A stretch of DNA of 36,901 nt from a virus (lineage: Duplodnaviria; Heunggongvirae; Uroviricota; Caudoviricetes): the IMG/VR virus record IMGVR_UViG_2802429253_000012. One strand, written 5' to 3'. This document shows, piece by piece, positions 1,151-24,186 of the stretch (the first letter of the stretch is position 1; each line of letters begins with the position of its first letter). Under the pieces are notes generated by a model that was given only the letters and a program-made list of their open reading frames with translations, was not told the origin of the DNA and did no database searches. Made by a program: the position numbers and the translations under genes.

Positions 1151-4100
1151 TTAGCCACTTAACATTCCTCCATCACGTCGCATATTTAACAGAGCGCCCT
1201 GCACCCGCTGATCAACCATCCCCATAAGTGCTTTTATTGCCTGAGGACCAATCTCTCCATTCTGGCCGTCATTTTGAATAGTGATTTGGTATACAGGGGC
1301 ATAAGTAATATCTCTGCCTCCATTACCACTTTTACTATTAATAGCTCTGACACCAAGAGAACCATCGGAAGTTCGCGTTAATGGCATAATAGCTTCCGGT
1401 CCAGCCTCACCAAAAACACCAGCTCCTTTTGCAAAAGCAAAAAATTGCGGGGAGTCATAAATACCGTTCGAATATGTACTCAATGACGGAGACTCATAAA
1501 CACCGCCCTTTGCATTCGGAATAAATTTACTAATAGCACTCCCGATAGTTCCTAAAATACCCCCAGAAGAACTGTTACTAATGCTGTCGAAAATCCCAGT
1601 AATTGAAGCCTTTAATGCAATTCGACTAAGATCCGAAATCACGGAAGTAGCGAAAGAACGAAAATTTGCCTTGCCTGTCGTGACAAAATCACCTAGCGCA
1701 TCGGTCATCCCATCAAACATCTGAGTCGTGGTTGATTTTATCTGCGCACCGATATCCTTAGTGTCATCCAGCCAGTTATTGAATCCCTGGGAGGCACCAC
1801 TAATCCAGTCTCCTGCCTGAATATCGAGCTGCTCGTTTTTCTGGCTGACAATTTCTTTTTCTCGTTCCAGAGCATCATTCAGAGCCTGCATTTTCTCCTG
1901 AAAAACATGATTTGACATTCCACGGGATTTATCTGCATAGTCACGTTCAAGTTGCAGACGCTGATTGTTATATTCACGTTCAATCCGCAGTAATTCCTGC
2001 TGGCGTTGCTGATTTTTATCGCCAACCCCATAACCAGCAATCTGAATATCATACCCCTGCTGACGATTATCAATCGAAGCCTGCAATGAATCACGCCATG
2101 CGGCTATTTCGGCGGATTCTTTGATTAGCCTGCTATTTTTTTCAATCGCAACATTTTTCTCCATCAACGCGGTTATTTCTTCCCGGTGTAAGAGAAGTGA
2201 TTTCTGCTCTTGGGTTAATTTCGATGACGGTCGTGACTCTAGGTCGGCAATCTGCTGACGCCACTTAACCAGTTCCTGTTCAGAGGAACTTAATTTAACG
2301 GTCAATTCAGCTTGTGAACTTAGTAACGCATTCTGTTGATTCAGATGATCAATCATTCGTTGGGCAGCATCATCCGAATAACCTTTCGCCTTTGGTTGCT
2401 TTGGATCTTTATAACGCTCATTTATTTGAGCGATAAGATTATTATATTCTTCCTTTGAATACTGATTCTTTAGCTTTTCCAGTTTTGCAAGTTCACTAGC
2501 TCTCTGCTGCTCCCGGGTCTGATATTGTTTTGAAAAAGCATCTGCTCTCTGTCTGAGTTCAATTCCTTCCTGTTGTCGCTTGTTGTAATCGTTTATTGAT
2601 GAATTTAGTACGTCCTGAGCAATTTTTTCTGCTTGAAGTACGCCCAATTGCTGCTTTAATCGTGCCAGCTTTTTATTTTGAGCTCCGCCATCTCCAATGC
2701 CACCTAACCCGAAAACTCCGGGTCGGGTATTTTTTTCTATTTCATCAATTTGACGGAGAACATCTGAGATTTTTTGATCAAGGGAGGCCTCACGGCCAAT
2801 ATCCAGCATGGAATCCCATGCCCATTTTGCGGAGTCTGCGACAGCTTTCCATGCAGTCTCAAGATAACCAAGATTTTCTTTAATCTGGTTGGTGCGCTGG
2901 ATCATTGAGGATGAGTATGCTTCTGTCGCAATGCGGGCGGCCTCCTGCTGGTTCCCTTCATCCTGTAGCGCCTTAATTTGGTTATAAGTCGCAAGTGTCA
3001 GAAAATGGTACTGATCATTAAGTTTTGATATAGCACTGACAGGATCCTTTGCAATTTCATTGAAGTCATTAACCAGTTGTTCGGTTGATATTCCTGTTAC
3101 TTCGCTCGTTTTTACTATCGCTGTCGTCACTTGCTCCAGCGAACTGCTCGCTACCTTTCCCGAACGCACAAGCTGGTTTAATACTGCCGCCGCAGCGCCA
3201 GTTGTCGAATCAGCCGCATTCCCGGCACGTTGAGCTATATCGGCCAATTGCCCGCTGGTTGTCCCCAACTGATTTCCGGTAAGAATAAGAGATTTATTAA
3301 ATTCGTCCTGCTCCTGAGAGCCTTTATAGTAAGCCAGTCCTAAGACCCCAACGGCTGCTGCGGCCAGGGTAAAAGGATTAACTAATCCCAGCACATAAGA
3401 ACCTACACCTTTGATCGCCGGGCCAATCCCACCGAACATATCTTTTAGCTGGCCGCCCTGCTGCATTAACACCATAAATGGCGACTGACCAGTGGACAAC
3501 CCAACAACAATATCCGTCATTTGTGCAGGCAACATGCGCATAGCAAAAGCCGTTTGTTTTGCCGACATTCCGGTTTTGCTTAATTGTGATTGAGTAACCT
3601 CAAGCTCACTCCGCATAGCACGAAGTTTTCCAGAAAGCTCCTCATACATTTCAGGAGAAAGCATCCCCTTAGCTTTTGCTTCATTGAGCTGTTTCTGTTG
3701 TTCTACCAGACGATTAAAAGCAGTTCCGACAGGATCAAGTTGAGCAATCAGACGTTGCAAAGCAACAACCTGTTCATCATGCGCTTTTGCTGCTTCTCGC
3801 TCTGCCTGAGCCTCTCCGGTAAGCTCTCGCCGTGTTTCCTGTATTTTTCGGCTATAATTCTCAAACTGAGAACCATTTATTTTCCCGGATGCAAACGCAG
3901 CATTAAGTTCATCATGCTGTTGTTCAAGATTTCTTAGCGCCGCAGCCAGAGGGTCGATCTTGTCCAGCATTCTTTGAAAGGCCTGAGCCTGCGCTTCCTG
4001 CTGGGCGGCAGCAAGTTTTCCGGCCTTCTCGGCTTCTCTCTGCGCTTGCGCAACCCCGCTCAATTCCTCTGTGGTTTCATTAAGTTTACGGACAAGAAAT

Positions 4101-4384
4101 TCATATTCTTCTTTATCAATAAGCCCTTTATCGAAAAATTTCTTTAATTCAGAATAGCGTCGACCGACAGTATCAATTGCGGCACCAACTGGATCAATAG
4201 CTGCTTTTAATTTTGCGAGCGCGTTCTTCTCATCTTCTGTTGCCTTAGTCACTTTCCCTGCGCTATTTGCAGCAGTTTTCCCAGCCTGCGTCATTTTGAC
4301 TAATGAGGAGGTCAGATTGTCAGCATTATTTTTCGCTCCAGTGCTATCAATAATTATTGCGAGACGCGAGGTTTGCTCTGCCAT
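1151..4384 (-). CDS. H: Tail tape measure protein
   Basis: 1077-aa ORF, coiled-coil-rich N-terminal two thirds and Gly-rich C-terminus, located between T and M as in lambda. Confidence 0.9.
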
Positions 4385-4400
4385 TTATTAAAACTCCTGA

Positions 4401-4427
4401 CAACAAAAAACCCACCGAAGTGGGTTT
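4401..4427 (-). terminator. Intrinsic terminator-like hairpin between T and H (stem aaacccac/gtgggttt, loop of 4, then U-rich run on the minus-strand transcript)
   Basis: Read directly from sequence; lies inside a 163-nt T-H gap and immediately upstream of the H RBS (caggag). Confidence 0.45.
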
Positions 4428-4547
4428 CAGGCGACATAATAGTAGATATAGCGATTACGAGGTCACGCAATGCTTTTCTCCAGGAGCATCATCGATTTAA
4501 TTAAAGACACCATCACATCTCTGTAACAGAGTGTACGTAATTAACAA

Positions 4548-12737: not shown

Positions 12738-14048
12738 TTAAATCCGAAGTGATGTGACTCTTCCGGTCGGTTTGACAATAGGGAATTGCTTAACGATGAA
12801 ATAACCTCCGGCATCATTCGGGTGATCATTGCCAGATTTTTTATCAGGCTCCCCCTTATCATCCCAGACCTGTTGCTCCAGAGATTCGGCATATACCGGA
12901 CAACGCTTCACATTAACTTTATAGCGACGCTCACCATTGGCATTGCAGAACATTGCATTCATTGAGTTAACGCGATCTTTTACTGGCGGGTTCGAGCTGT
13001 TCACCACAACGTTAAAACCAGCCTGCTTAAGCTGGGCTATATCCGTCGTACTTGCGTTACTTGATTTTCTGGAATCTCCGGAAGCATCTGGATAAATATA
13101 AATCTCCCTCACTTTCCGGTAATCATTCCCGTCATACAGCCAGAAGCGTTCTTTAATGATGCGGATCATATCCGGCGTATCGTAGGCATTGATGATTTCA
13201 GTTACCGCACATGGAAGCCCCAAACGCAGCACATGGACGATCCCCGCCATCTTTCCAACGTTAAAATCCATCCCAATATAAATCGGCTCCCCTGGCTGCT
13301 CCACTTCTTCGCAATTATTCAGTTTCCGGTCAAACTGATGGTAAACAGTACCACTTGTCAGGTTAGTAAACTGTCCTCGAAGATAGGCTTTAATCAGCTC
13401 TGGAGGGTATGATTCAAGAAGCGAAGGAATGTAATCTGCTGGCAGGTTCTTTTCATTATCGAAAGTAGATGCCTGCACCAGACCATACAGTGAGGCCAGC
13501 TCTGTTTTTTCACGCACGGCTTTAACAAACTGCTCGTAGACAAATTTGAATCCTTCCGGCGTGGTTGTAACGTCAATACCGTTGCGAAGTCCATCAATCT
13601 TATAACGCATACGCGCAATTATCTTGCGCCACGCCGTTCTGGCTTTTTCCTTCGGCAAAATGTCCAGTTCATCCACCAGCGCATTACCAATTTTGAAACC
13701 GACGATCGTTTGTGGCTTCTCCATCGATCTGCAGATAGTGGTTCCCCGATACTGGCGTCCGTAATAAAAGTGAACCTCTTTATTTCCCTCATTAATTTTT
13801 ACGTTCAATCCCCAGTCAGCAGCAACTTCTTCCACTGTAGGGTAAAAAATATCGCGAATTTGGGGATACGTTGGCGCAAAATATCCCTGATTTATACCTG
13901 GATGCTCCCAAATCCCCTTGCATATGCCGCCACACCCAACCCATGTTTTGCCCGAGCCAAAACCAGCAATATAGGCTTTAAATTTATGGGGCATTGAAAG
14001 AAATCGCGCCTGAGGCACATTAAGCGTCGGAGAGATCATCTTCATCAC
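12738..14048 (-). CDS. Terminase large subunit
   Basis: 436-aa ORF with N-terminal Walker A-like GFGSGKT and acidic nuclease-type C-terminal half. Confidence 0.9.
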   Translation of the reverse strand: MMKMISPTLNVPQARFLSMPHKFKAYIAGFGSGKTWVGCGGICKGIWEHPGINQGYFAPTYPQIRDIFYPTVEEVAADWGLNVKINEGNKEVHFYYGRQYRGTTICRSMEKPQTIVGFKIGNALVDELDILPKEKARTAWRKIIARMRYKIDGLRNGIDVTTTPEGFKFVYEQFVKAVREKTELASLYGLVQASTFDNEKNLPADYIPSLLESYPPELIKAYLRGQFTNLTSGTVYHQFDRKLNNCEEVEQPGEPIYIGMDFNVGKMAGIVHVLRLGLPCAVTEIINAYDTPDMIRIIKERFWLYDGNDYRKVREIYIYPDASGDSRKSSNASTTDIAQLKQAGFNVVVNSSNPPVKDRVNSMNAMFCNANGERRYKVNVKRCPVYAESLEQQVWDDKGEPDKKSGNDHPNDAGGYFIVKQFPIVKPTGRVTSLRI

Positions 14049-15114
14049 TCCTTACTCTGGCATCAACCACATTAATATTGATCGCCACAGGCTGGGGATG
14101 TTCATTATCTTCCACCGTTTCGATCTCTTTGCGCAGCTTCTGGTTTTCCATTCTGCGTCGTTCAATTTCCAGTTCCTGTAGCCGCTTATCTGCACATAAA
14201 GCCCCGCCAGCAGAAAGCAAACGCAACAATTCACGCCGGGCGGCAGCCTTATCCTCCAGCAGGATCTCAACGCCGAATTTTCCGAGTTTTGCCCCTGCAT
14301 ATAATTGCCGCGCATCCCCATCAAGCAGAGTGGTATCAGCCATATAAAGCTGTCCCGTTCCCTCACCGCAGCACTTCGGGCAGTCCGGATTGGGTATGGC
14401 GTTATCAACAAAGCCGAGGCCTCCATATTCCGGTTCGGGTTTGCCATCTCTGGAAGCCTGCGCCGCTGCCTTGTCGAATTCTGCTATATCGCGCCACTGG
14501 TAGAGATGATTCTCGCCCCAGCAATAACGGCAGTTAACACGGCGAAATTGTGCAAGCTGATTGGGGTCGGCCAGGACAATGGCCATCAACTGACTCACCA
14601 GTAAATCCAGGTCTGCGGTATAGCGTTTCTGGTACTGATTGCGGAAGTAGCTGATAGCGCGAAAAACCCTGGCATTTCTAAGCATACGACTGGCGTTGCT
14701 GTTAGCTGTCGCACCTTGCCCCTCATAACCGGCTAGTCGGTACGCCTCTGTCGGCTTTTTCCCCTGAGCAACAAGCATCGCAAACTTAGCCTGCTGGTCA
14801 GAAATGCCGAATTCATCGGGACAGAACGAAAATTCCTCCGCGTCGCCCTCATTCAGGCCCGCATCGAATACTGGCTTTTTTTCCTGAGATTTTTCGTTCC
14901 GCTTTTGTGCAGTCTGCGCAGATTTTTTCTGCGCACTTTTTTGCGCAGTTTTGCGCATTTCTGTCTGCGCATTTTTCGGAGGTTTTTTGATGTAACGACG
15001 GGCTGTTGCGTAATTCAGTCCCCTTGCTTCACACCATGCCACCGGAGATATACCGGAGCGGGTGTATTCAGCAATATACTCCTGCTGCAACGCCCCCCAG
15101 TCCGGTCTGCTCAT
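14020..15114 (-). CDS. Terminase small subunit, unusually long (364 aa) with N-terminal HTH, Lys/Gln-rich linker, Cys cluster and C-terminal coiled coil
   Basis: Position immediately upstream of and overlapping TerL; N-terminal HTH-like segment; CPKCCGEG and CRYCWGE Cys motifs read from the translation. Confidence 0.6.
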   Translation of the reverse strand: MSRPDWGALQQEYIAEYTRSGISPVAWCEARGLNYATARRYIKKPPKNAQTEMRKTAQKSAQKKSAQTAQKRNEKSQEKKPVFDAGLNEGDAEEFSFCPDEFGISDQQAKFAMLVAQGKKPTEAYRLAGYEGQGATANSNASRMLRNARVFRAISYFRNQYQKRYTADLDLLVSQLMAIVLADPNQLAQFRRVNCRYCWGENHLYQWRDIAEFDKAAAQASRDGKPEPEYGGLGFVDNAIPNPDCPKCCGEGTGQLYMADTTLLDGDARQLYAGAKLGKFGVEILLEDKAAARRELLRLLSAGGALCADKRLQELEIERRRMENQKLRKEIETVEDNEHPQPVAININVVDARVRSDEDDLSDA

Positions 15115-15117
15115 CAG

Positions 15118-15369
15118 TTAGTCCTGATTTTTATCCACCCTGAGTAGTTCGCGCAGAGCAAAGGCATCCCCTTTTCTGGCAAGCTTAAACAATGCCGCTC
15201 GTAACTCGGCTTCACCTTTCGCTCTGCCCTTACGGATGGCCGCATAAAAATCTGTCATTGCTTCCCGATTTTCTTTCAGTCGGTTCAGATCAACATCCAG
15301 AACGTCAGCGATTTGTTGTGCAGTCATCCGGCACGCTGCCAGAGACTCGACTTTCGAATACGGAATCAT
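15118..15369 (-). CDS. Small HTH-like protein upstream of TerS (start uncertain; could be 15327 or 15258)
   Basis: 83-aa ORF whose stop lies 4 nt from the TerS start; overlaps the 3-prime 65 nt of the upstream gene in another frame; AGGGGTGA upstream of the 15369 start. Confidence 0.4.
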   Translation of the reverse strand: MIPYSKVESLAACRMTAQQIADVLDVDLNRLKENREAMTDFYAAIRKGRAKGEAELRAALFKLARKGDAFALRELLRVDKNQD

Positions 15370-16237
15370 TTGTCACCCCTATTGATATGCAGGGTGTCTT
15401 CTTCCTGTATTTTTCGTGAAGGATTTTTACTGCAGCGTTGTTCCAGGTGACCTGATGGTGAATGCGTTTATGGCTGGCACCCATCAGTGAGATTTTTACG
15501 CACGACGGCGCATACATGACGGAGTAAAAACTTTTAACGTAGGTTCCGGAATCCAGATACAGCTCGGTCATTCCGCCGCTGTTTTTCTGCGTCTGTTTCT
15601 GCCCTAACTGGACAGCACCGATCGTCATAAACAATTCACCACAGCGACCGAGATTCGTGTACGTATTCACATCCTCGTTAATGCGCCCCATGAATGAGAA
15701 CGGTCGATCAACCGAACAGATAAAGCTGTTCATTGCCTTGCGTTTCACCCACGAAGCATGGCCGCCATTGTCACCAAGAAAATCCCCGCCCTGCGACATA
15801 GCGATGGAAAGAGCAGGTATTGATTCGTAGTACGCCAGCATTTCAGAAAGGATCGCATCCAGTTTCCTTATCGGAAAATAGGCCTGGTCATAGTTGCGAT
15901 CCACCCGAAACTGGAACTCGTGATAATCATCATCGAGCTGAATGAAGTATTTACACCCGACCAGTTTTGCCAGGTCGAAACAGGCATTACGGGCGTAAAA
16001 AATTGAGCGGCGGTCACCGAAATTATCGGCTTCGTCAAAACGACTGGCGATATCGGCTTTGGAAAACACCAGCACCTGTTCACCAAATTCAGCCATGTAC
16101 TGATGCCGTGTCTTATCTTCATCATCAACAACGATAAAAATTTTCCCGGTATAGCCAGCACGACGCAACGTCCGGTAAGTCAGAACTTTGTCCGGTCGCC
16201 CGTGAGTCAGAATAAAGGCGCAAAAATCATCACGCAT
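15305..16237 (-). CDS. Hypothetical protein with GT-A glycosyltransferase-like features (DDED and LDDDY acidic motifs); product unverified
   Basis: 310-aa ORF from the ATG at 16237 with GGAGGAGGA RBS; start overlaps the ParB-like stop in the string ATGCGTGA; beta-strand/acidic motif pattern is my inference only. Confidence 0.6.
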   Translation of the reverse strand: MRDDFCAFILTHGRPDKVLTYRTLRRAGYTGKIFIVVDDEDKTRHQYMAEFGEQVLVFSKADIASRFDEADNFGDRRSIFYARNACFDLAKLVGCKYFIQLDDDYHEFQFRVDRNYDQAYFPIRKLDAILSEMLAYYESIPALSIAMSQGGDFLGDNGGHASWVKRKAMNSFICSVDRPFSFMGRINEDVNTYTNLGRCGELFMTIGAVQLGQKQTQKNSGGMTELYLDSGTYVKSFYSVMYAPSCVKISLMGASHKRIHHQVTWNNAAVKILHEKYRKKTPCISIGVTNDSVFESRVSGSVPDDCTTNR

Positions 16238-17021
16238 ATTCCTCCTCCTCACCACCATGCATGATCTCCACCATGCGCTGCGTCATCCGGACAAATCCAT
16301 TTTCAATAGCCTGCTGATAATCAATGATCACCAGCGCCGACTCCTCGAAAAAACACTGAATTTCAGCGGGGGCGTGAGCGTAATAGTCCGCAATTCTGCT
16401 GAAATTAAACACCGTGTGACGTTCTGCCGCACACAGGAGGAATTTCTCAATATCAGGCTCAAGAGACGCCGAACGTATCCGGCTGATCAGCTCCTGAGTT
16501 TTCGTATCGTCGTACAGTTCACTGATATCCGGTTTACCGCCCGACGGCTCATAAACAGGCGTATCAATTTTCGTCGTATACGGCTCCTCCTCATTTTCTG
16601 TACCTGGCAAAACATCCGTCAACAGTTCATCAATTTCTGTCGGGCTGAAGCCTGTCAGGGAGACATCAAAATCAGCATTGATTAGGTCCGACAGCTCCAT
16701 CCGTAACAGATCTTCATCCCAGCCAGCATTCATCGGCAGGCGATTATCTGCCAGGCGGTACGCCTTTTTCTGATCATCCATCAAACCAGACAGAACGATG
16801 ACCGGAATGGAATCCATTTTGAGCACTTCAGCCGCCATAACGCGACCGTGACCAGCAATAATTTCGCCCTTTTCATCAATCAGCACCGGATTAGTCCAGC
16901 CGAATTGCTTAATGCTTTCTACCAGTTGTGCCACCTGCTCAGGGCTGTGTGTCCTGGCGTTGTGTGCATACGGAGACAGTTCTTGTAAAGGGCGATAGAC
17001 GATCTTCAATTTCTCGCTCAT
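16230..17021 (-). CDS. ParB-like nuclease domain protein
   Basis: 263-aa ORF; N-terminal region (YRPLQELSPYAHNARTH ... IIAGHGR) matches the ParB/sulfiredoxin N-terminal domain pattern; acidic C-terminal tail. Confidence 0.75.
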   Translation of the reverse strand: MSEKLKIVYRPLQELSPYAHNARTHSPEQVAQLVESIKQFGWTNPVLIDEKGEIIAGHGRVMAAEVLKMDSIPVIVLSGLMDDQKKAYRLADNRLPMNAGWDEDLLRMELSDLINADFDVSLTGFSPTEIDELLTDVLPGTENEEEPYTTKIDTPVYEPSGGKPDISELYDDTKTQELISRIRSASLEPDIEKFLLCAAERHTVFNFSRIADYYAHAPAEIQCFFEESALVIIDYQQAIENGFVRMTQRMVEIMHGGEEEEYA

Positions 17022-17158
17022 ACAGCCTTGCTTTATGAATAAAACGCACCCCAGCAGCCAGTGCTACTGGGGGCGGAGGTGTTGCTGGTAAAGTTAGGTA
17101 TTGGATCAATGAGTGAGTCAATATAATATTAAACTCACAATTATAAATCAGCCATATA

Positions 17159-20704: not shown

Positions 20705-20779
<75 letters not shown>

Positions 20780-20782
20780 ATA

Positions 20783-20858
<76 letters not shown>

Positions 20859-21211: not shown

Positions 21212-21754
21212 TCAAGCCGTTTTTTGAGCGAATGATTCTCGCATGGGAATGTATAGCGCATACTCAGCAACGGCCAACCAATTAGCAATTCGCTTTTCGC
21301 ATGTGCTAAAACACCACTCTGGGTGCGCATCATTTAGCAATTCAGCCATTTTGCGTTTGGTCATCCCCCGCCCCTCATACCGTTGCCGAAGGACGCTAAT
21401 CAATCCTGGATGCTCTGCCAGCACCTCACTTATGACCCGATCAATACATAACGCCTCTGCATCAGTACAATGCGCCAGCCAGCTCTTTTGCTTACCGTTA
21501 ATCATATCCCGCAAAAAAGCCTCAAGTTCAGACTTGTTCAGACCTGCTTTTTTCATCCTCCGGAGCGCCTCGTTAATTGCCGTTTTTGTCAGCTTTTTAG
21601 AGGCCAACAACTGGTTGAACATATTCCCCGTCTTACCGCCACCAATATACGACCAGCGACCCCACATACGCAGTTTTCCCTGAATCCAGACACTTTCCAG
21701 CGTGGTGAGACGAAGGTGTTCTCCGCTTTTTCCTGTATTCGTTGGGTAAATCAT
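21212..21754 (-). CDS. Putative late-gene antiterminator Q (assigned by position; family not recognised with certainty)
   Basis: 180-aa frame from the ATG at 21754, whose ATG overlaps the upstream stop as ATGA; sits between nin-region genes and the terminator/tRNA/lysis block. Confidence 0.5.
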   Translation of the reverse strand: MIYPTNTGKSGEHLRLTTLESVWIQGKLRMWGRWSYIGGGKTGNMFNQLLASKKLTKTAINEALRRMKKAGLNKSELEAFLRDMINGKQKSWLAHCTDAEALCIDRVISEVLAEHPGLISVLRQRYEGRGMTKRKMAELLNDAHPEWCFSTCEKRIANWLAVAEYALYIPMRESFAQKTA

Positions 21755-22041
21755 AAATAACCTTCCTTTCTCCAGATTTCTTGTGTGCGAAAAACACCTT
21801 CTGCATGCATCAGGCGTAATTCTTCTTTGATGTAATCGCTGGTTTTTACCCGCCCGTCGATTAAATCGTGGCATGAGCTACAGGCAATCGCTGCCTGCAT
21901 ATCGTGTGGTTTTGTCGCTGTTCCGCACGTCCCTGCCAACCTGTAATGCGCCAGCACAGAAGTTTCGGGATTGTGATTGCAGTAGCCAGGGATTCTGACC
22001 TGGCACATCTGGCCCCGCGCCGCTTTACGTAAATCCACCAT
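21751..22041 (-). CDS. YbcO-like (DUF1364) Cys-rich nin-region protein, putative nuclease
   Basis: 96-aa ORF with CQVRIPGYC and CSSCH motifs; closely resembles my recollection of E. coli DLP12 YbcO. Confidence 0.7.
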   Translation of the reverse strand: MVDLRKAARGQMCQVRIPGYCNHNPETSVLAHYRLAGTCGTATKPHDMQAAIACSSCHDLIDGRVKTSDYIKEELRLMHAEGVFRTQEIWRKEGYL

Positions 22042-23499: not shown

Positions 23500-24186
23500 T
23501 CACTCCTTCTCTTCTTTACCGTAGTGGAGTTGACCAATTTTGATAAGAGGGCGTCCCTGAGATTTGCGGTGTAGATTGGTATCGCGCAGAGAATACACAC
23601 AGCCACAATATTCCTGCTGATAGAATTTTTCGCGCTTGCTGATTTCAATCATGCGGGACGAGCCGCCCTGCTTGCGCCAGTTATAATCCCAGTACACCAT
23701 GCCCGGATAATGCGCGACGGCTCGCCGCCCACAGTCGTTAACCTGCTGCATATTTTTCCAGCGTGAAATGCCCAGTGAACTGCTGATCACACTGAAACCA
23801 TTTTCAGCAGCGTACAGCGCTGTCCGCTCAAAACGCATGTCAAAACACATGGTACAACGGATCCCCCTCTCGGGCTCCCATTCCATTCCTTTGGCACGTT
23901 CAAACCAGTTGTCTGTGTCGTAATCAGCATCAATAAATGGCACGCCGTGTTGTTCAGCAAAGCGAATATTCTCATCCTTACGAATTAAATACTCTTTCTG
24001 AGGATGAATGTTCGGGTTGTAGAAAAAGATGGTATAGTCGATTCCCGAGGCCTGAAGCGCCTCCATCACTTCACCGGAACATGGAGCACAGCAAGAGTGC
24101 AGTAGTAGTTTGTTTGCCCCGTTTGGGAGCTCCAATTTAGGCCGTTTGAAATCAGCAATAGTCATAAATATTTTTATTGGGGTCAT
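23500..24186 (-). CDS. QueH-like (DUF208) putative Fe-S epoxyqueuosine reductase homologue
   Basis: 228-aa ORF with motifs [28 protein letters not shown] and C-terminal YCGCVYS that I recall as characteristic of DUF208/QueH; no obvious SD at either candidate start. Confidence 0.55.

Follow-up and report, generated by a model that had tools for sequence, protein, structure and literature searches.

We analysed a 36,901-nt stretch of viral DNA (Duplodnaviria; Heunggongvirae; Uroviricota; Caudoviricetes; IMG/VR record IMGVR_UViG_2802429253_000012), hereafter the window, which is a Rac-like lambdoid prophage of Escherichia coli. Our subject is a pair of overlapping genes at 15305-17021, close to the terminase genes: ynaK, which encodes a ParB-like protein, and a gene for a 310-amino-acid (aa) protein, hereafter the transferase, of the TET-associated glycosyltransferase (TAGT) family. 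An earlier description made from the sequence, hereafter the original prediction, had drawn attention to the pair. Its features are listed below (NTP, nucleoside triphosphate).

16230..17021, minus strand: ParB-like gene, full-length ynaK, 263 aa, ending in GGEEEEYA and the stop codon
16602..17021, minus strand: ParB/Srx N-terminal domain of YnaK, NTP-binding-type, residues 1-140
16233..16586 (about), minus strand: partner domain of YnaK, residues ~146-263
15305..16237, minus strand: transferase gene, 310 aa, beginning MRDDFCAFILTHGRP
15926..15934, minus strand: DxD metal/nucleotide-sugar motif, D102-D103-D104 within QLDDDY, GATGATGAT
16230..16237, minus strand: stop/start overlap of 8 nt, ATGCGTGA
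16240..16248, minus strand: Shine-Dalgarno sequence for the transferase, GGAGGAGGA, just upstream of its ATG

Reading the reverse complement, we find that the transferase ATG (16237-16235) and the YnaK TGA (16232-16230) both lie inside ATGCGTGA. The Shine-Dalgarno sequence GGAGGAGGA is built from Glu codons in the acidic tail of YnaK, and one GGAGG core of it ends 6 nt ahead of the ATG. These coordinates bear out the original prediction, which had proposed a coupled pair with a shared stop/start string and a ribosome-binding site in the ParB-like 3′ end, and both elements are conserved elsewhere. We examined 76 related loci from other taxa, and 67 of them show a stop/start overlap of 4-14 nt (11 nt in 36 loci, 8 nt in 22, 4 nt in 6, and 14 nt in 3). 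In 51 of 79 loci, a Shine-Dalgarno-like 4-mer falls within the 15 nt that precede the start; of random 15-nt windows from the same loci, 13% contain one. The stop/start overlap exceeds chance, and YnaK and the transferase are translationally coupled, with the coupling conserved family-wide. An alternative, longer reading of the transferase would give 317 aa from an ATG at 16258; we prefer the 310-aa start because homologues begin at the conserved MRDDFC.

The public annotation of ynaK differs from this picture. RefSeq/PGAP labels the gene a truncated pseudogene with a 'missing C-terminus', annotating only the first ~86 codons (for instance L086 21665-21922 and L001 19665-19922, where L numbers denote our loci). 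The ynaK open reading frame (ORF) is really intact at 263 aa and has full-length homologues across phages, and ~525 nt of conserved partner-domain coding sequence are left unannotated. In K-12, ynaK is truncated.

Performing profile searches, we find that the 310-aa protein falls in the glycosyltransferase family TAGT (Pfam PF20691; E 6e-35; 121.5 bits against a cut-off of 27.5; profile positions 4-205 of 205). It also matches PHROG 842 (phrog_842) with E 9e-104. The family, which Iyer et al. 2013 reportedly defined and whose best-known members modify DNA, is related to the base-J glucosyltransferase and GREB1. The protein has an isoelectric point (pI) of 8.0 and at least 8000 homologues at E≤0.001; its RefSeq entry is WP_001204031.1, and some RefSeq/UniRef copies are named 'GREB1-related protein'. 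AlphaFold2 (AF2) models were built from shallow alignments (15 sequences for the transferase, 14 for its partner) and were used for fold class only. The transferase model is confident over residues 1-150 and poor past ~217, with a mean predicted local distance difference test score (pLDDT) of 63.6. Comparing it with the PDB by Foldseek, we obtained GT-A sugar/nucleotide transferases as the only matches (E ~1e-3), including ColGalT1, LARGE1, GalS1, SpsA, SunS and glycogenin; the transferase sequence had no significant match among PDB chains. The Pfam, PHROG and Foldseek results agree with the GT-A-type sugar or nucleotide transferase that the original prediction had suggested.

The acidic motifs on which that suggestion was based are present, DDED at residues 38-41 and LDDDY at residues 101-105. 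We compared the E. coli protein with homologues of 38-48% identity from Lactobacillus phages, a Nocardia phage and the haloarchaeal virus HHTV-2. R14, D41, D68/D71, DDD102-104, N187/D189, T216-Q217, R258 and H260-H261 are invariant in this set, while E188 of the N-E-D motif becomes D in phage c5. Since the R...DDD...ED motif set is complete and invariant, the transferase looks catalytically intact. The Escherichia protein carries a C-terminal tail of ~22 aa that is absent from its homologues, which are 285-290 aa long. As a separate observation, many database proteins (P0023, P0033, P0040, P0042, P0045, P0210, P0213 and P0214) begin with 60-75% of the E. coli transferase or ParB-like protein and continue into a tail-fibre, tail-tip, Lom or tail-assembly domain. 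Such joins are probably internal deletions of the Rac type, as in K-12, or assembly chimeras.

YnaK is a 263-aa protein of two domains, a ParB/Srx N-domain and a TAGT-partner domain, with a linker between them. It matches phrog_620 (E 3e-89); its match to Pfam ParB_N (PF02195) is marginal (27.9 bits against a cut-off of 26.3), and TIGR00180 gave 36 bits, below the cut-off of 58. The AF2 model of YnaK matches Noc, ParB, KorB, PadC, Srx and a serine kinase (SerK), with Foldseek E down to 9e-7. On alignment, A-G-H-G-R60 corresponds to the GERR box of ParB/Spo0J, N21-A-R23 to QPR, and D92-N93 to the box-III E-N. The phosphate-binding positions are kept and the canonical ParB hydrolysis residues are replaced (Q to N, E to H); R60 is lost in the counterpart from Nocardia phage NTR1 (GNHT). 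The N-domain is probably NTP-bound.

The closest relatives of the N-domain outside the TAGT module are the N-termini of phage DNA methyltransferases, with 40-54% identity among 495 matching phage records. Consistent with this, the N-domain matches phrog_498 (E 2.5e-50) and the PADLOC model MTase_II (E 1.8e-38). It is the ParB/Srx module that phages also fuse to DNA methyltransferases. In PADLOC, YnaK matched only the ParB-like N-terminus of the type II methyltransferase model and the transferase had no match at all. The original prediction could place the pair in no named DNA-modification or defence system; the transferase does have a named family, TAGT. Apart from the name that its family has carried historically, nothing in the ParB part marks it as a nuclease. 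We rejected an identity as a partition ParB (ParABS). YnaK shares the N-domain fold and the conserved phosphate-binding Arg and Asn positions with such proteins, but it has no helix-turn-helix (HTH)/parS domain, it carries GHGR for GERR, it is acidic, it lies in a late phage operon, and no parA gene is found among the prophage genes. The GenBank phage label 'chromosome (plasmid) partitioning protein' is misleading.

The partner domain is the best-conserved part of YnaK. Its motif Y-T-x-K-x3-P-x-Y-E-P sits in a low-confidence linker, ahead of a helical core (FL..AA.RH.VF.F..IA.YYAH..E.Q.L.E.SALVIID). Profile scans found no Pfam, NCBIfam or PDB family for the domain. Its profile gave designed armadillo repeats as the best PDB match (E 0.05), which we judged spurious, and 5 of the 16 members showed a faint similarity of the RH.VF.F..IA.YYAH segment to PF23887 (mycobacteriophage L5 gene 47-like), always below the family threshold and with E 0.008 at best. 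Searching 1.84 billion cluster representatives with phmmer, we find the partner domain in 1188 of them; it is C-terminal in all of the best 150 of these 1188 matches. The lengths of the proteins cluster at 250-310 aa (ParB-N plus the domain) or at 130-200 aa (the domain alone).

We surveyed the two-gene module in 80 IMG/VR loci and ~80 further loci. A full-length ParB-like gene stands immediately upstream of the transferase in 80 of the 80 IMG/VR loci, even where the terminase small subunit (TerS) is only ~40% identical. Scanning one genome per species, we obtained 79 loci in which the transferase is 41-59% identical. They come from Bacteroidota, Firmicutes, Desulfobacterota, Planctomycetota, Acidobacteriota, Verrucomicrobiota, Saccharibacteria, Spirochaetes and one archaeal metagenome-assembled genome (MAG). 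The same gene order is found in Lactobacillus phage phi jlb1 and in a Porphyromonas phage, where the transferase is only 28% identical. In Lactobacillus delbrueckii phage c5 the pair makes up ORF1 and ORF2, directly after cos. Nocardia phage NTR1 has ORF1, ORF2 and then the terminase large subunit (TerL), with no separate TerS annotated between, and in HHTV-2 the pair lies ~3 kb before TerL. In all, the ParB-like gene adjoins and overlaps the transferase gene in ~160 loci.

The two parts of the upstream protein were detected separately with hidden Markov models (HMMs) built from the alignments of this analysis. Of 83 loci, 77 carry the partner domain in the ORF whose stop lies at the TAGT start, and in 63 of those 77 this ORF has the ParB N-domain too. 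At least 8 loci with complete upstream sequence have a short upstream ORF with the partner domain only, as does Vibrio phage pv27. From its distribution, the partner domain appears to be a previously undescribed, universal companion of TAGT in this module. When same-strand neighbour ORFs were clustered all against all, the two module genes alone recurred in every locus (80 of 80). Behind them ranked a TerS-sized gene of ~164 aa, present in 34 loci, and then TerL clusters; no third conserved component emerged from this clustering in ~80 loci. We regard the pair, on these comparisons, as a conserved two-gene module and not a chance neighbourhood.

We then considered the setting of the pair in the prophage. 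DNA identical or near-identical to 15100-17100 is found in many E. coli chromosomes. When this 2-kb query was compared with 5426 complete genomes, 1600 of them gave a match and 867 covered it to at least 80%. The RefSeq genes of the matching chromosomes include intR, xisR, recET, kilR, sieB, racR, ydaS/T/U/V, lysis genes, trkG, ynaK, and terminase, head and tail genes; SieB and RecT were confirmed within the window itself. The features around the pair are as follows.

23500-24186, minus strand: homologue of QueH (epoxyqueuosine reductase), Pfam E 1.9e-65, in the nin-like region
21212-21874: Q-like antiterminator gene, upstream of the pair
20705-20858, minus strand: tRNA-Gly(tcc) and tRNA-Thr(tgt) genes, between the Q-like antiterminator gene and the lysis genes
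17049..17072, minus strand: strong terminator-like hairpin, a 10-bp stem with 7 GC pairs and then a T-run
15118..15369, minus strand: small conserved ORF, 83 aa (69 aa in RefSeq), phrog_309 E 8e-23
14020..15114, minus strand: TerS, Pfam Terminase_2, phrog_51
12738..14048, minus strand: TerL, from the RefSeq annotation of identical DNA

The hairpin at 17049-17072 directly follows the trkG moron, and 27 nt separate it from the ynaK start downstream. With a terminator in this place between trkG and ynaK, the pair depends on read-through by the Q-dependent late transcript. Together with the upstream Q-like antiterminator gene, the hairpin thus indicates that the pair is part of the late transcript, made late in lytic growth, and not lysogen-expressed cargo. 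Scanning for sigma-70 promoters around the pair, we found 5 against 4.0 expected, which is chance level, and we claim no promoter.

On the other side of the pair, the small ORF at 15118..15369 resembles part of a TerS family and has counterparts of 59-70% identity in diverged IMG/VR loci. It overlaps the transferase 3′ end (15305-15369) by 65 nt, or by 23 nt with the later RefSeq start. It accompanies the pair in enterobacterial relatives and was not universal in the neighbour clustering. The pair had been described as lying between trkG and TerS; the trkG side holds, while TerS is not directly adjacent since this small ORF intervenes. The QueH homologue is an unusual tRNA-modification cargo gene for a prophage. 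A link of the pair to QueH and queuosine was considered and dropped, as QueH does not recur in the other clustered neighbourhoods.

Elsewhere, the first large ORF downstream of the module is mostly TerL, from unrelated families: Terminase_6N in 29 loci, Terminase_3 in 23, TerL_ATPase in 5 and GpA in 2-4. Both cos-type and pac-type terminases are found behind the module. Its upstream neighbours are end-of-early genes, namely SSB, RusA, VRR-NUC, YopX and N6/N4 methylase. ParB-N/methyltransferase fusions take the same pre-terminase slot; Streptococcus phage Javan28 and Verrucomicrobia phage P8625 are two examples. The original prediction had called this a common accessory-gene position; it is not a variable cargo slot but a conserved pre-terminase site shared with the ParB-methyltransferase fusions.

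Some versions of the module stand among other genes. A DNA polymerase III beta-clamp gene directly follows the transferase in L115 (5114-6196), L119 (6871-7962) and L152 (7071-8156); in all three the upstream ORF is the partner domain without the ParB N-domain, and the clamps are 36-51% identical to one another. In Vibrio phage pv27, a helicase gene follows the transferase inside a replication module. In L149, from a Pseudobdellovibrionaceae MAG, a gene for UDP-galactopyranose mutase (3340-4530; UDP, uridine diphosphate; Pfam GLF, E 1.7e-73) overlaps the transferase end. This fits a UDP-sugar donor and hints at galactofuranose as the donor in that lineage. Virulent phages also carry the module, among them c5 and the 191-kb Vibrio phages.

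Looking for a pathway that would prepare a base for glycosylation, we find no TET/JBP dioxygenase, C5-methyltransferase, thymidylate-synthase-like hydroxymethylase or alpha/beta-glucosyltransferase annotated in the prophage. No hydroxymethyl-pyrimidine source recurs across the ~80 neighbourhoods, and none is annotated in the complete 31.8-kb genome of phage c5, in which the largest unassigned ORF has 208 aa. With no such source encoded, the acceptor cannot be the usual 5-hydroxymethylcytosine (5hmC) or 5-hydroxymethyluracil (5hmU).

The name 'beta-glucosyl-HMC-alpha-glucosyltransferase' (HMC, hydroxymethylcytosine) now stands on records of small siphoviruses and of an archaeal virus (NC_024206, NC_021340, NC_019449 and others; L082, L083, L085), to which it has apparently spread from PHROG 842. 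As no hydroxymethylcytosine pathway is annotated in c5, this product name is annotation transfer and not evidence. Performing tblastn, we recovered T4-like (Aeromonas) phage homologues at 23-25% identity only, and T2/T6 were not recovered at E≤1e-3.

Several known systems resemble the pair in part. PF20691 has been equated with the second-glucose transferase of T2/T6 and described as GT-A; a solitary TAGT of undefined function occurs in 288 of 753 TAGT-bearing phage genomes (PMC13216743, NAR 2026), and the transferase described here belongs to this 'solitary TAGT' class. It has in common with the T2/T6 beta-glucosyl-HMC-alpha-glucosyltransferase the Pfam and PHROG family, the GT-A fold, and the DxD and ED motifs. 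It differs in having no hmC pathway, alpha-glucosyltransferase (alpha-GT) or beta-glucosyltransferase (beta-GT) beside it, in the 23-25% identity to T4-like members, and in its coupled obligate partner; we noticed no ParB-like gene at the T-even-like matches, which were not specifically examined for one. Phage GT-A enzymes glycosylate 5hmC, and their neighbours include ParB-like and terminase genes; ~65% of the glycosyltransferase contigs have no 5mYOX or ThyS gene and were treated as less obviously related to hypermodification (Pyle et al., bioRxiv 10.1101/2023.12.21.572611). The R...DDD...ED layout and the phage DNA-metabolism context are shared with the 5mYOX/TET-linked phage GT-A enzymes and the kinetoplastid base-J glucosyltransferase (bioRxiv 10.1101/2023.12.21.572611). 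Those 5mYOX/TET-linked enzymes act on 5hmC/5hmU from a neighbouring dioxygenase or thymidylate-synthase homologue, whereas no such gene is found here.

For the ParB-like protein, the nearest functional parallel comes from the thymine dioxygenase 5mYOX176, which needs the ParB-like activator ParB176 on double-stranded DNA. ParB176 has no DNA-binding domain, and mutations of its NTP motif had little effect (PMC13229309, PNAS 2026). In both systems a ParB-like protein without a DNA-binding domain stands beside an enzyme and combines an N-terminal NTP-binding-type domain with a distinct C-terminal domain. The enzyme here is a glycosyltransferase and not a dioxygenase, and the C-terminal domain belongs to a separate undescribed family that can stand without ParB. 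By analogy, the pair may work like the 5mYOX/ParB system, without being a member of it. PMC13229309 credits Iyer et al. 2013 with the proposal that modification enzymes are directed by ParB. ParB-CTPase folds bind a variety of NTPs and are frequently joined to methyltransferases, in fusions that are enriched in prophages (PMC12704722, PNAS 2025). The ParB-N/N6-N4 methyltransferase fusions resemble the pair in the N-domain (40-54% identical) and in the slot just upstream of terminase; their methyltransferase is fused, whereas here a separate glycosyltransferase is joined through the partner domain and the coupling. This is not a categorically new system, since the two protein families were already known and DNA modification with the help of a ParB-like protein has an experimental precedent. 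The pair is a very widespread uncharacterised variant with a new partner domain.

We consider it an even chance that the pair forms a late-expressed, partner-dependent DNA glycosyltransferase with an acceptor other than the usual 5hmC or 5hmU. DNA as the target is inferred from the family and the context. The two genes would constitute one two-component enzyme system acting late in lytic growth. The partner domain would bind or dock the transferase, and the ParB/Srx domain, probably NTP-bound, would bring or hold the complex on DNA or switch the enzyme on; in the ParB-less versions, the phage beta-clamp or the replisome may serve as the tether. Sugar would be transferred from a UDP-sugar to replicated phage DNA just before or during packaging, and the glycosylated injected genome would be shielded from host nucleases as an anti-restriction measure. 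We also considered sugar capping of terminase-made DNA ends and set it aside, since cos phages such as c5 must ligate their ends and ParB-less versions lie in replication modules. If the acceptor is DNA and no hydroxymethyl source is present, the chemistry must differ from all known DNA glycosylation. A more specific proposal, which we advance only tentatively, is that ParB-partnered TAGTs glycosylate DNA without any hydroxymethylated base, on a canonical base or the backbone, with the enzyme loaded or activated by the ParB/Srx domain or a sliding clamp.

Several observations weigh against a DNA glycosyltransferase. The AF2 models are weak in part, that of the transferase in its C-terminal half (the last ~90 residues have pLDDT <50) and that of YnaK in the partner domain (mean pLDDT of YnaK 67.3). 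YnaK is strongly acidic, with a pI of 4.5, and neither its model nor its fold matches show an HTH or other recognisable DNA-binding domain beyond the N-domain. No hydroxymethyl-pyrimidine source is annotated in the prophage or in c5, and to our knowledge the characterised DNA glycosyltransferases of the TAGT family all depend on 5hmC, 5hmU or a base that already carries a sugar. GREB1, a TAGT-family member, modifies a protein, the oestrogen receptor ER-alpha, with O-linked N-acetylglucosamine (O-GlcNAc) (PMC7968844). We found no DNA-modification data for module-carrying phages in the searchable literature, and no functional study of a ParB-TAGT pair; that search did not cover Iyer et al. 2013.

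Some of these points lead to the main rival, a protein glycosyltransferase that O-glycosylates its partner (for example at the invariant Tyr/Thr of the Y-T-x-K...Y-E-P linker), the terminase, the portal or virion proteins. We consider it unlikely, yet it deserves the most attention among the alternatives. The TAGT domain of GREB1 is a protein O-GlcNAc transferase (PMC7968844), and mycobacteriophage virion glycosylation provides a precedent. No hydroxylated DNA base is available, the module heads the structural and packaging operon, an invariant Tyr/Thr linear motif lies in the low-confidence linker of the partner, and the partner is acidic and has no DNA-binding domain. GREB1 shares the glycosyltransferase family and lends its name to the RefSeq 'GREB1-related protein', but it is a 1949-aa cytoplasmic animal protein (PMC7968844), and the name says nothing about the phage substrate. 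A protein acceptor does not sit well with the ParB N-domain, whose type is specifically the one that phages fuse to DNA methyltransferases. Moreover, the ParB-less versions lie among replication genes (beta-clamp, helicase) and not structural genes, and the unrelated terminase and structural families downstream leave no conserved protein substrate besides the partner.

Returning to DNA as the favoured target, we find a further alternative in a different nucleic acid or nucleotide. The acceptor could be RNA, such as tRNA, or a nucleotide-derived signal, in a counter-defence role, and the ParB/Srx domain would then be an NTP-dependent enzyme and not a DNA tether. ParB/Srx folds include kinases and ATP-dependent enzymes (Srx, SerK), which are among the fold matches of YnaK. 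In phages and archaea, ParB-CTPase folds occur in fusion with RNA-related domains, and the NTP that is bound differs between members (PMC12704722). The replacement of the canonical hydrolysis residues (Q to N, E to H) would also fit. The neighbourhoods show no link to RNA or signalling genes, however; the consistent neighbours belong to DNA replication, recombination and packaging. We consider this alternative improbable.

The original prediction had left a DNA-targeting transferase and a packaging accessory nuclease both possible. The transferase is favoured, with its DNA target inferred, and the nuclease is disfavoured by the missing signature and by viable deletions. In its packaging form, this alternative takes the ParB-like protein for a terminase-associated nuclease or a pac/cos recognition factor and the second protein for its helper. 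The site immediately upstream of TerS/TerL is kept in most loci, NTR1 has no annotated TerS between the pair and TerL, and the family has the historical label 'ParB-like nuclease'. Against this, the terminases downstream come from at least 4 unrelated families of cos and pac types, the module also occurs away from terminase genes, and the glycosyltransferase active site of the second protein is complete and invariant. Natural deletions speak to the same point. Compared with c5, phage Ld25A has a 1.2-kb deletion that fuses ParB residues 1-91 to the last ~80 transferase residues, and the resulting ORF1 (L168 90-515) is annotated 'ParB-like partition nuclease'. Phage Ld17 (L169 75-833) has no ParB gene, and its transferase is internally deleted. 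Both are isolated, propagated Lactobacillus delbrueckii phages of the same genus as c5. Deletion of the module in these viable phages indicates that it is accessory and not part of the packaging machinery, and we hold a packaging role to be very unlikely.

Equally far-fetched in our view is a lysogen-protecting defence or superinfection-exclusion cargo, comparable to the trkG moron. The pair does adjoin that moron, the prophage also has sieB, and ParB_N-type domains occur in the defence proteins GmrSD and DndB (PMC12373910). PADLOC is silent on the transferase and matches the partner to a methyltransferase N-domain only; the pair lies behind a strong terminator, inside the Q-dependent late operon, and virulent phages (c5, the 191-kb Vibrio phages) carry the same module. 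Finally, the literal reading of the product name, by which a second glucose is added to glucosyl-hydroxymethylcytosine as in T2/T6, draws on the shared Pfam and PHROG family and is effectively refuted, since no deoxycytidine monophosphate (dCMP) hydroxymethylase, alpha-GT or beta-GT was found in the prophage or c5 and the tblastn matches to T4-like phages were so distant.

Phage DNA sugars are currently understood as decorations of 5hmC/5hmU, and a large set of TAGT/GT-A genes without such a pathway nearby has recently been flagged as unexplained (PMC13216743; bioRxiv 10.1101/2023.12.21.572611). The window holds an E. coli member of this group, which is experimentally convenient as a two-gene clone from an inducible-type lambdoid E. 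coli prophage. A protein acceptor would make the module a phage system of protein glycosylation with a wide distribution. With DNA as the acceptor, the pair would define a new modification, and ParB-like proteins would be seen to regulate a second class of enzyme, with a bearing on restriction evasion, sequencing artefacts and DNA-labelling tools. Should that DNA be unhydroxylated, it would amount to a new chemical class of DNA modification, spread over temperate phages of many bacterial phyla and an archaeal virus, and present in the Rac-like prophages of at least one-sixth of complete E. coli genomes.

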